From assembly GCF_029227855.1 (NCBI RefSeq), contig NZ_CP074356.1: a stretch of 64,000 nt of DNA; one strand, given 5' to 3'. Shown here piece after piece: positions 28,301 through 31,300 of the stretch. A program made the position numbers. Within the stretch, counting starts at the first letter, position 1; every line of letters begins with the position of its first letter. This stretch comes from Escherichia coli (GTDB taxonomy: Bacteria > Pseudomonadota > Gammaproteobacteria > Enterobacterales > Enterobacteriaceae).

Positions 28301-31300
28301 ATCATGTATAAGCAATAAAAAACAGCTTCAGGTAATGAGGAATATCTCAATTTTTAAACATAAAATGCGAATTATTTAGTACAAAAAGTGTACTTCTGAT
28401 GATCTTTCCCTGTCCTTGGCACCATCATTTTTTGACGCTTCAAAAATACTACTACAAGTGAGTTTAGAAAACTCTTTTCCAGATAATTCTCCAGGTTGTA
28501 ATCCTCCGCCGCCAAAAATCCTACTCCCAGGATTTCCATACCTATTTAGAGCATATGAATAGCAATTATTTACGGCAAGATAATACGCATCTGAATTTAG
28601 TTCTCGATTGAATACTGGAGCAGGTTTATCAATTAAGCCCAGCGGATCAATAGAATAGGTTGGATGTATGGAAGCATATACATACTGATTCCACCCGCCT
28701 TCCAGCCCAATCGGATCCTGAGTGATATACCGCCCCTGCAGCGGGTCATAATAGCGGTGGCGGTTGTAATACAGGCCGGACTCCTCATCATACTGCTGCC
28801 CCGGCAGACGGATAAGCTGCTGCAGGTGCTGCGGGTTCTCTTCAGTCAGCAGGTTGTCCCATTCATCATATTCTGCGCACCATTCTGTTGCCCCGTCAGG
28901 GCTGATAAGCGTCAGCGGCAGGCCGCGATAGTCGCAGTGGTAGAGGTGGATTATTCGCAGTGATCTATATGCCAACGTCATCTTATTTTTCATCTACTCC
29001 AACGAGTAGACAAGTTTTTTATTAAACCATTTATACCTTTTACGATTAAATTTTCTTATGTAATAGAGGTGAATAATCTTCCCAAAAATCCATACAAGCT
29101 TTACTTGCATAAAAGAATCCAGCGTCTGATTCATAAGACATAAACTGTGCAATAATAGATAGTTGTATATCTGAAAAATTAAAAACAAAATTCAAAAAAT
29201 CATCGTGATCCCGATACTCAGGACATAAATATTGTTGAATAAAATCGGATTCAAAAACCCAAAAATCATTCTTATTAAACAACGAGGCATAAATATACAG
29301 AGGGATGTAATAGCAGAATACTTTCTCAGGGAGGAATGTAATTCCTAACTCTAAAGCATAAGAGTCATCCTTTATTTTAAAATTGTTGGCTATTTCATTC
29401 CATTGTTTCTTTTGGAAAAAATTATATACAATATCCAGTTCCTCCAGCCCTGTAATATCATTTGAAATATGAGGTAATGGCTGGCATGGGAAATGAATCA
29501 TAAGTTCATCATAGACTGCACTCTCGTTAGAGAAAATTATTTTTTTCATTTTATTAAGCCACTGCAATCAGCTGCTGTTTTATATGCTTTATTCTCTTCT
29601 TCCATATGGGCCTTATCTCCACCACCAAAGCACTGATTATTAATCTGCTTTCTGACCGAAGCGCACGCCAAATTTATCTCGTACCGTCTCAATATTTCTT
29701 TTCTCAGCATCTGAGGAGCGCAAGCTCTAGACTGGTTACATAATCTGTTTTTTTCATTTTGTAAGTCACTCAGGTTCTGGGGACTACAGTTACCACCAGG
29801 ATTTACACCTGACTTATGTTCATCTGTTAATTTGTCGGCTTCTGGATTAACTTTACGGCCATATTGATCTCTGCGTTGTTGCCCACTTTGGATAACACCA
29901 CCTGATGAAAACAAACCGCAACTCATCAGTGCTACAACACTAAGAATTAACGGATTTAACCCTTGTGGGTCTATCTCTGAGATCGGATTTAACGGATACT
30001 GATAAAAATTCCATCCCCCCTTCAGTCCAATCGGATCCTGAGTGATATACCGCCCCTTCAGCGGGTCATAATAGCGGTGGCGGTTGTAATACAGGCCGGA
30101 CTCCTCATCATACTGCTGACCCGGCAGGCGGATGAGCTGCTGCAGCTGATGCGGGTTCTCTTCATTCAGCTGGTTACCCCATTCATCGTATTCTGCGTAC
30201 CACGCTGTTGTCCCTTCCGTGCTGACAAGCGCCAGCGGCAGGCCGCGATGGTCGCAGTGGTACAGGTGGATTTTTCGCGCCGGCGTGTACACCGGGTCCA
30301 TCTGGTTTTGCATCTGCTCCACCGTCAGGCCGCACGATGCCAGCCAGCGGCGGCTTTCCTCGCTCACCCGGTCAGTAAGGATTTCACTTTCCAGCCGGTC
30401 GAGCATCTGCACCAGCACCGGCGGGAACACCACTCTGCCACCGTCTTCGCCGCCGGACTGCTGAAGGGCATCCGCCAGGCTGCGGCGCTGCGTTTTCGCC
30501 AGCTCACCGGTGGCGGTTTCAACTCTGATGAGTGGCGTGAAGCTCCCCGGCTGATAAACCGTCTGGATGCGGGTTCTGTCGTTCTGTATTGTGGTCAGCC
30601 GGTCGCCGTCCCAGCCGTACCAGGTCACTTCCGGTTTCCGTGACAGCGACATCCAGCCCGTCAGGTCCCGTTCACGCCGCCATACCCGTTTTGCCACCCT
30701 GCGGCCCAGCGGGTCGTAAAGATAGCGACTTTCGACCAGCGGCTCTGCATATTGTGTCCGCGTGTAGTGCACCAGCCGGTGCCGGCTGTCGTAATGATAC
30801 CGGTGAGTCCGCTCATCATCCGTGCGGATAACCCCTTCCGGGATGAGGTCGGTTTTCTCTGTCAGCCTGCCGTGACGGTCATACCGGTAAAGATAGTGCG
30901 CGTCACGGGCGATACGGTTATCCGGCCACATGCTGAGGGTGCTGTCCGGGTGCAGCTCCGGGTCGGGCAGGCGGTTGCCTGCCGGGTCCGTGGCATACGG
31001 GATGCGGATATCCAGGTTCGCTGCCGTGGTGTGGACGCCGGTCAGCCTGCCGGTGTCGCTGTAGCTGTAACTCCGGGTCTGGCGCGGGCTGCTGATGCGG
31101 ATGAGTTCGCCGTTGTCGTTCCAGGTGTAATCGCGGTCATACTGCAGGCTGTTCAGGTGCTGGCTCTGTAACTGCCCGGCAGGGGTGTAAGCGGTGGTGA
31201 GTTCATAACGGCCGAAGCTGCGCAGCGTTTCCCGGTGCAGGCGGTCGCGGGTGAAATCCACCAGCGGTGTGTCGCCGAGTTTCATGCCTGACAGCCAGCC

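Follow-up and report, generated by a model that had tools for sequence, protein, structure and literature searches.

An Ntox16 toxin tip with a six-cysteine framework and a likely DUF6714 immunity partner in an Rhs protein of Escherichia coli

We analysed a window of 64,000 nucleotides from Escherichia coli (contig NZ_CP074356.1, RefSeq assembly GCF_029227855.1) that contains a full Rhs polymorphic-toxin gene, and asked what its C-terminal tail may be. Judged by its sequence, the tail is a member of the catalogued Ntox16 family and not a new kind of system: Pfam matches it to Ntox16 (PF15523) with E 8.5e-13 and a score of 48.8, over model positions 2-84 of 85 (tail residues 54-133, window 29558..29797). 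On balance we lean towards an enzyme that acts in the cytoplasm, most likely as a nuclease, and whose cysteines form a structural framework. Ntox16 was described by Zhang, de Souza, Anantharaman, Iyer & Aravind (2012; PMC3482391) as an α-helical toxin tip in which an Arg and a [DNE]xxH motif are conserved; in the proteobacteria, cyanobacteria and verrucomicrobia where they found it, it follows RHS repeats or Photorhabdus virulence cassette (PVC) metallopeptidase domains. The same survey placed it among the predicted metal-independent RNase toxins and recorded no immunity protein. The present tail is of the same kind, being α-helical, carrying the Arg and the [DNE]xxH motif and belonging to the C-terminal tips of Rhs and PVC-type extracellular contractile injection system (eCIS) toxins. 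Beyond the 2012 table entry we find six invariant cysteines, a recurrent DUF6714 partner and a frequent hydrophobic linker ahead of the toxin domain.

The Rhs protein is 100% identical to WP_048219329.1, which RefSeq names 'RHS element core protein'. Pfam recognizes DUF6531, many RHS repeats that make up the YD-repeat shell, and an RHS domain. The NCBIfam model RHS_core scores 2630 bits over residues 1-1247 and stops exactly at the L of DPQGL, where the Rhs_assc_core model likewise ends; the variable tail therefore comprises residues 1248-1383, or 136 amino acids (window 29549..29956). In characterized Rhs proteins the DPQGL motif is the C-terminal self-cleavage site that releases the toxin. 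The YD-repeat shell and the C-terminal DPxGL cleavage motif of Rhs polymorphic toxins are thus both present. Over 29046..33697 the G+C content steps down from 62% in the Rhs core to 40% in the toxin tail and 30% in the next gene, the candidate immunity gene. Such a drop is commonly seen at exchangeable Rhs tips, and it fits a horizontally exchanged cassette of tip plus immunity gene.

Relatives of the tail were collected at E ≤ 1e-3 from 1.84 billion representative proteins and fell into 274 related representative clusters, in which the Ntox16 domain lies essentially always at the C-terminal end; in sampled relatives it follows RHS or eCIS_core. Conservation was read from an alignment of 137 domain segments, taken from representatives at ≤ 50% identity. 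C57, C79, C98 and R102 (tail numbering) are present in all 137 segments, and C73, C109, C131, H117 and G112 in 136. Position 114 is D in 118 segments, N in 18 and E in 1; G55, L65 and G113 are conserved at ∼ 90% or more, and Q66, R77, N95 and N106 at ∼ 70-80%. The invariant polar cluster of the domain is made up of R102, N106, G112-G113, D/N114 and H117. Natural losses of the cysteines are few and occur as singletons, not as pairs. In this alignment the six-cysteine framework is a family hallmark beside the published R/[DN]xxH motif. A further sub-motif, D-x-x-G-x-x-[VI]-[SN]-P-x-A, occupies tail residues 31-41 (∼ 29834..29866). Of 121 relatives, 34 have it, at a distance of 18-33 residues ahead of the first cysteine; it lies outside the Pfam model and is predicted with high confidence as a short bridge and helix. 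One candidate relative, P0156 (605 aa, seven 'stretches'), was discarded as a false positive caused by a low-complexity repeat.

Other collections added little to this picture. Profile searching of a set of 5.8 billion proteins gave no family beyond PF15523, and neither the tail nor the candidate immunity protein was matched by NCBIfam or PADLOC. PHROGs returned a single weak match (phrog_28180, E 0.0057, function unknown), tblastn against 50,697 phage records returned nothing, and on the phage and plasmid side distant relatives were seen only on three megaplasmids. A genome scan with a narrower alignment yielded 5 loci, and the taxonomic breadth of the family was taken from the metagenome representatives. 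The name Ntox16 is used in a single open-access paper, the survey of 2012; the words 'novel toxin 16' also turn up in an unrelated paper on Akkermansia.

The cysteines had already drawn attention in a preliminary description of this DNA, which placed at 29549-29975 a tail that opens with a hydrophobic stretch and continues with a polar region containing about eight cysteines. All of the peptides quoted there were found, and tail residues 2-22 are uncharged. The interval covers the tail, although its upper end takes in six codons of the conserved core, and the cysteines number seven, not eight: C13 in the hydrophobic stretch and C57, C73, C79, C98, C109 and C131 in the polar part. The cysteine richness itself is real (5.1% of the tail vs. 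0.64% of the Rhs core). A typical proteome value is 1.1%, and the binomial probability of at least 7 cysteines in 136 residues is 3e-5 at the rate of the core and 8e-4 at 1.1%. That the six cysteines of the polar part are invariant or nearly so among the 137 relatives is far stronger evidence than composition; C13 has no conservation among homologues. The description also reported no HNH, HxxH or DxK signature by eye and argued against one of the common RNase/DNase tails. Pfam gives none of these families, and no known nuclease or deaminase family is matched by sequence or fold, but R102 and D114-K-A-H117 had been missed, and the Ntox16 motifs mark a predicted RNase family. The want of an HNH, HxxH or DxK motif, or of a fold match, does not make the tail non-enzymatic.

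AlphaFold2, run on tail residues 28-136 with an alignment of 89 sequences, predicted a compact domain (predicted local distance difference test, pLDDT, 97.5; predicted template modelling score 0.88) with helices at tail residues 38-49, 59-73, 85-109 and 115-135. The fold comparison that the preliminary description had proposed as a check gave no confident match to a known enzymatic toxin fold. Foldseek against the PDB found no specific match (best E 0.8). Against AFDB50 it returned 57 matches at E ≤ 0.001, and among the top 50 listed all were Ntox16, Rhs or DUF4157 proteins. A core of 82-85 residues superposes at ∼ 1 Å on models of other Ntox16 proteins in the AlphaFold database, where identical and near-identical entries, including E. 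coli and Shigella proteins, bear the name 'Novel toxin 16 domain-containing protein'. A sequence search of the PDB with the tail hit only IpaB (E 0.38), which we treated as coiled-coil noise, and a profile search of the PDB with the tail family found no relative.

When the helix register of the model is followed, one end layer of the bundle would hold C57, C109, D114 and H117; N106 would lie one layer deeper and R102 two. C98 would fall in the fourth layer and C73 together with C131 in the fifth, and C79, in a loop, could fold back to C98. This predicted layout fits three staples (57-109, 73-131 and 79-98), a Cys4 plus a Cys2-His-Asp metal site, or a Cys-His-Asp/Asn triad. A natural variant bears on the choice. 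P0079 (L016 3001-4383) is a Sec-signal-bearing protein of 460 aa with two tandem Ntox16 domains, of which the first is degenerate: it has kept all six cysteines and lost R102, D114 and H117. This suggests that the cysteines hold the fold and that R/D/H form the functional site; by this comparison the cysteines would be structural rather than catalytic.

The third arrangement corresponds to a thiol enzyme, in which C57 or C109 would act in a Cys-His-Asp/Asn triad and the tail would be a cytoplasmic protease, deamidase or acyl-transferase, not a nuclease. We regard this as unlikely, and it is the alternative that we would take most seriously. It has in its favour the invariant Cys and His, and at position 114 the alternation of Asp with Asn, which beside a Cys and a His is the substitution pattern typical of papain-like triads. 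The helix register would moreover bring C57, C109, D114 and H117 into one layer, and an immunity protein that stays in the cytoplasm, as described below, suits the need for a reduced thiol. It fits poorly with the degenerate copy in P0079, where six cysteines survive the loss of R, D and H; the fold searches gave no similarity to a known cysteine hydrolase; and the invariant R102 is left unexplained.

The gene directly downstream of the toxin is a candidate immunity gene that is translationally coupled to it through an ATGA overlap. Its product (WP_000720081.1, a hypothetical protein in RefSeq) matches Pfam DUF6714 with E 3.9e-5. The same arrangement recurs elsewhere. A DUF6714 gene lies directly downstream in 7 of the 8 metagenomic Ntox16 genes for which downstream sequence was available, and the seven toxins are of several kinds (four Rhs, two eCIS_core of the PVC type and one standalone protein with its own membrane segments). 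DUF6714 is likewise directly downstream of Ntox16 in a Hyphomicrobiales genome, and P0079 is overlapped by a DUF6714-like gene (L016 4376-4879) that is detected by our own hidden Markov model (E 6e-17) and has no Pfam record. Altogether, a DUF6714-type gene stands directly 3′ of Ntox16 in 9 other sampled loci. This genomic association makes DUF6714 the likely cognate immunity family, with the pairing extending across Rhs, eCIS and Sec-secreted Ntox16 proteins. In Neisseria and Cardiobacterium loci the downstream gene encodes a divergent protein of 186-215 aa, which the Pfam DUF6714 model misses. These proteins are joined by phmmer only to each other and have some DUF6714 motifs in the alignment, and may represent a diverged subfamily of immunity proteins.

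The 12 immunity candidates are without exception acidic (net charge -3 to -17), and none has a signal peptide, a lipobox or a membrane segment. As the DUF6714 proteins lack export signals, the toxin is probably active inside the target bacterium, in its cytoplasm. With a median pI of 8.6 the toxin domain is mildly basic, and the combination of a basic toxin with acidic immunity proteins fits, weakly, a nucleic-acid target. The location of the immunity proteins also bears on a different use of the cysteines, namely a disulfide-stabilized toxin that folds with the help of DsbA of the target cell and acts in the periplasm or on the periplasmic side of the inner membrane, tethered there by its hydrophobic segment. 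Six invariant cysteines in a small helical domain would suit such a toxin, as would the membrane-like hydropathy of the segment, and among 126 full-length relatives ∼ 20 carry a Sec signal peptide or a lipobox. Immunity proteins against effectors that act in the periplasm must be exported, whereas all 12 here lack export and membrane signals, including the partner of a Sec-exported toxin. We therefore consider a periplasmic site of action quite improbable.

For the cytoplasmic nuclease that we favour, the following sequence of events can be proposed. Self-cleavage of the Rhs protein at DPQGL would free the tail, which would enter a neighbouring cell, presumably via a type VI secretion system. 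The hydrophobic linker would aid delivery or passage across the membrane and would not be the toxic principle. Inside the target cell, the Arg and the [DN]xxH motif, clustered at one end of the bundle, would form the active site of an enzyme, most likely a metal-independent RNase or another nuclease, as Zhang et al. (2012) predicted. The six cysteines would have a structural part, either as the three staples 57-109, 73-131 and 79-98 or as structural metal sites, and DUF6714 would protect in the cytoplasm as the cognate immunity protein.

Several points weigh against this scheme. The RNase assignment draws solely on the conserved Arg/His/Asp pattern, and no experimental work on Ntox16 activity was found in the literature searched. 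The cysteine pairings come from helix register, not from distances. Six invariant cysteines are unusual in a reducing cytoplasm, and the Sec signals and lipoboxes among relatives favour disulfides and possibly an extracytoplasmic life. Delivery is assumed: no vgrG or type VI secretion gene adjoins the rhs locus (the RefSeq neighbours are ybfA/kdp and ybgA/phrB), and Pfam assigns no PAAR domain to the start of the Rhs protein. Residues 5-8 of that protein (window 33674..33685, minus strand) spell PAAR, and the first domain that Pfam assigns there is DUF6531, at residues 46-123. The lack of linked secretion genes and of a PAAR domain in Pfam also speaks for a reading in which the module is not a delivered weapon in these strains at all, and instead an internal pair of the toxin-antitoxin type or an evolutionary relic. 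Toxin-antitoxin-like behaviour is reported for Salmonella RHS elements (PMC7043789). Against this reading, 243 of 5426 complete E. coli genomes carry the gene intact and with an identity of at least 99%, and the gene combines a full Rhs shell with a translationally coupled immunity gene. We give this explanation little chance; it concerns the use of the module and not the identity of the domain.

The hydrophobic stretch at the start of the tail reaches a Kyte-Doolittle mean of 1.98 over 19 residues (the usual membrane threshold is 1.6). Close homologues have an unrelated and equally hydrophobic sequence in its place. To count such segments we took a mean of at least 1.6, located 20-75 residues before the first cysteine, in the 98 relatives with enough upstream sequence; 34 (∼ 35%) have one, and 22 of these 34 lie behind a DPxG Rhs motif. 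The segments are somewhat enriched in Gly/Ala/Ser (35% vs. 26%) and have more Lys/Arg on their C-terminal flank. When AlphaFold2 was run on the full tail, residues 1-25 had a pLDDT < 50 and no secondary structure, and the domain was > 90. The stretch is a recurrent, optional and variable accessory linker outside the fold; speculatively, it may help the released toxin to engage or cross the inner membrane. P0129 (L011 67-657) is a standalone Ntox16 protein of 196 aa with two strongly hydrophobic segments of its own and no Rhs or eCIS domain, and is followed by a DUF6714 gene.

These properties do not bear out the suggestion in the preliminary description that the tail is a membrane-acting effector: the stretch is missing from most relatives, is not conserved and is modelled as disordered outside the fold, and the immunity protein is soluble and acidic. 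A known effector of that kind is Tse5-CT of Pseudomonas aeruginosa, which is likewise an Rhs C-terminal tail with a hydrophobic sequence and no recognizable enzymatic motif. This Rhs-delivered pore-former is a membrane protein in its own right, as is the two-pass integral Tsi5 that confers immunity to it (PMC9637101, PMC10684867). In the present family, by contrast, conservation lies in a polar and soluble bundle of helices. We think it very improbable that the segment enters the inner membrane and collapses the potential in the manner of Tse5-CT, for although a 21-residue uncharged segment of this hydropathy, similar Gly/Ala/Ser-enriched segments in a third of relatives and the lack of a recognizable enzymatic fold all speak for it, the segment is single, is absent from ∼ 65% of members and receives no helix from AlphaFold2, the core is polar with an invariant R/[DN]xxH, and the immunity protein is soluble where Tsi5 has two membrane segments.

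The domain can be compared with three other groups of helical toxins. HEPN-type metal-independent RNases have an Rx4-6H motif and an all-α bundle and act on cytoplasmic RNA targets; the present domain shares with them the all-α bundle and a conserved Arg together with a His near the start of the last helix. Ntox15, the Tde DNase family of the Agrobacterium type VI secretion system, resembles it as a small, mostly helical polymorphic-toxin tip with a four-residue His/Asp motif. Ntox15 differs in that this motif is HxxD instead of [DN]xxH plus Arg, in having no cysteine framework and in being paired with Imm-SUKH immunity, and Pfam did not match the tail to it. The survey that defined both families describes Ntox15 as mostly α, with the HxxD motif (Zhang et al., 2012; PMC3482391). 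Lipocone toxins such as TelC and Min-Wnt are also helical polymorphic-toxin tips, and their polar active site sits at one end of a cone of helices. In them helix 2 carries a His and helix 4 an Asp, and their immunity proteins are periplasmic or belong to the membrane (bioRxiv 10.1101/2025.01.14.632903), whereas the Arg here lies in helix 3 beside [DN]xxH and the immunity protein is cytoplasmic; the Lipocone paper makes no mention of Ntox16. Kinship with the Lipocone and HEPN groups was set aside on the basis of the motif pattern, the location of the immunity protein and their absence from the fold-search lists.

The genes around the locus run in the order kdp, ybfA, rhs gene, ISAs1/ybfD remnant, ybgA, phrB and dtpD (Table 1). 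The region is 100% identical to that of E. coli strain 7/2, which puts the gene at the classical chromosomal site of rhsC in this species. The immunity gene is followed directly by an orphan Rhs C-terminal fragment, a pseudogene in RefSeq; no Pfam family matches its different tail, and we saw no obvious immunity open reading frame between the fragment and the ISAs1 remnant. The ISAs1 element may have cut short an orphan toxin/immunity array.

Table 1. Positions of the features described, given in the 64,000-nucleotide window except where a locus is named
Feature	Position	Strand	Basis
Full Rhs polymorphic-toxin gene, 1383 aa + stop	29546..33697	-	Open reading frame list; rhsC position
DPQGL, end of core, residues 1243-1247	29957..29971	-	Ends of RHS_core and Rhs_assc_core models
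Hydrophobic pre-toxin segment, tail residues 2-22 (21 residues)	29891..29953	-	Kyte-Doolittle
Folded toxin domain, tail residues 28-136, four-helix Ntox16	29549..29875	-	Pfam PF15523 and AlphaFold2
Span of the six family-invariant cysteines	29564..29788	-	Each in 136-137 of 137 relatives
C57	29786-29788	-	
C73	29738-29740	-	
C79	29720-29722	-	
C98	29663-29665	-	
R102, predicted functional site with D114-K-A-H117	29651..29653	-	137 of 137 relatives
C109	29630-29632	-	
D114-K-A-H117, family [DN]xxH motif, start of last helix	29606..29617	-	Alignment and published motif
C131	29564-29566	-	
Candidate immunity gene, 167 aa, DUF6714	29046..29549	-	ATG overlaps toxin stop as ATGA
Orphan Rhs C-terminal fragment, core end + different tail of ∼ 85 aa	28376..28993	-	Match to RHS_core positions 1143-1261
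ISAs1/H-repeat (ybfD) transposase remnants, at least 2 open reading frames	27477..28268	-	RefSeq pseudogene, internal stop
Divergent downstream proteins, Neisseria and Cardiobacterium	L003 5078-5638, L004 4973-5572, L006 5327-5971, L007 5330-5977		

We also put forward, tentatively and in the awareness that it may well prove wrong, a broader proposal for the family. Ntox16 would represent a new structural class among the toxin enzymes that act in the cytoplasm, built as a helical bundle of ∼ 85 residues in which six invariant cysteines serve as three staples or as Cys4 plus Cys2-His-Asp metal sites. Its R/[DN]xxH chemistry could not be predicted from known folds, DUF6714 would be its dedicated and hitherto undescribed immunity family across Rhs/type VI, eCIS and Sec routes, and the hydrophobic linker would be a portable aid to crossing the inner membrane.

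Nothing here is new in kind: the family was catalogued in 2012, and the E. coli and Shigella proteins are already labelled 'Novel toxin 16'. What the analysis adds is the framework of six cysteines, the pairing with DUF6714, the hydrophobic linker as an optional part and the want of structural relatives. The locus is an intact and widespread example (243/5426 genomes) of a toxin family without known activity, solved structure or structural relative, and is a reasonable, if unsurprising, target for biochemistry. The handles now available are a folded domain at tail residues 28-136, a candidate site at R102/D114/H117, the six-cysteine framework and the DUF6714 immunity family. Once worked out, the activity of this domain would close one of the gaps that the 'Ntox' families still leave in our picture of polymorphic toxins.

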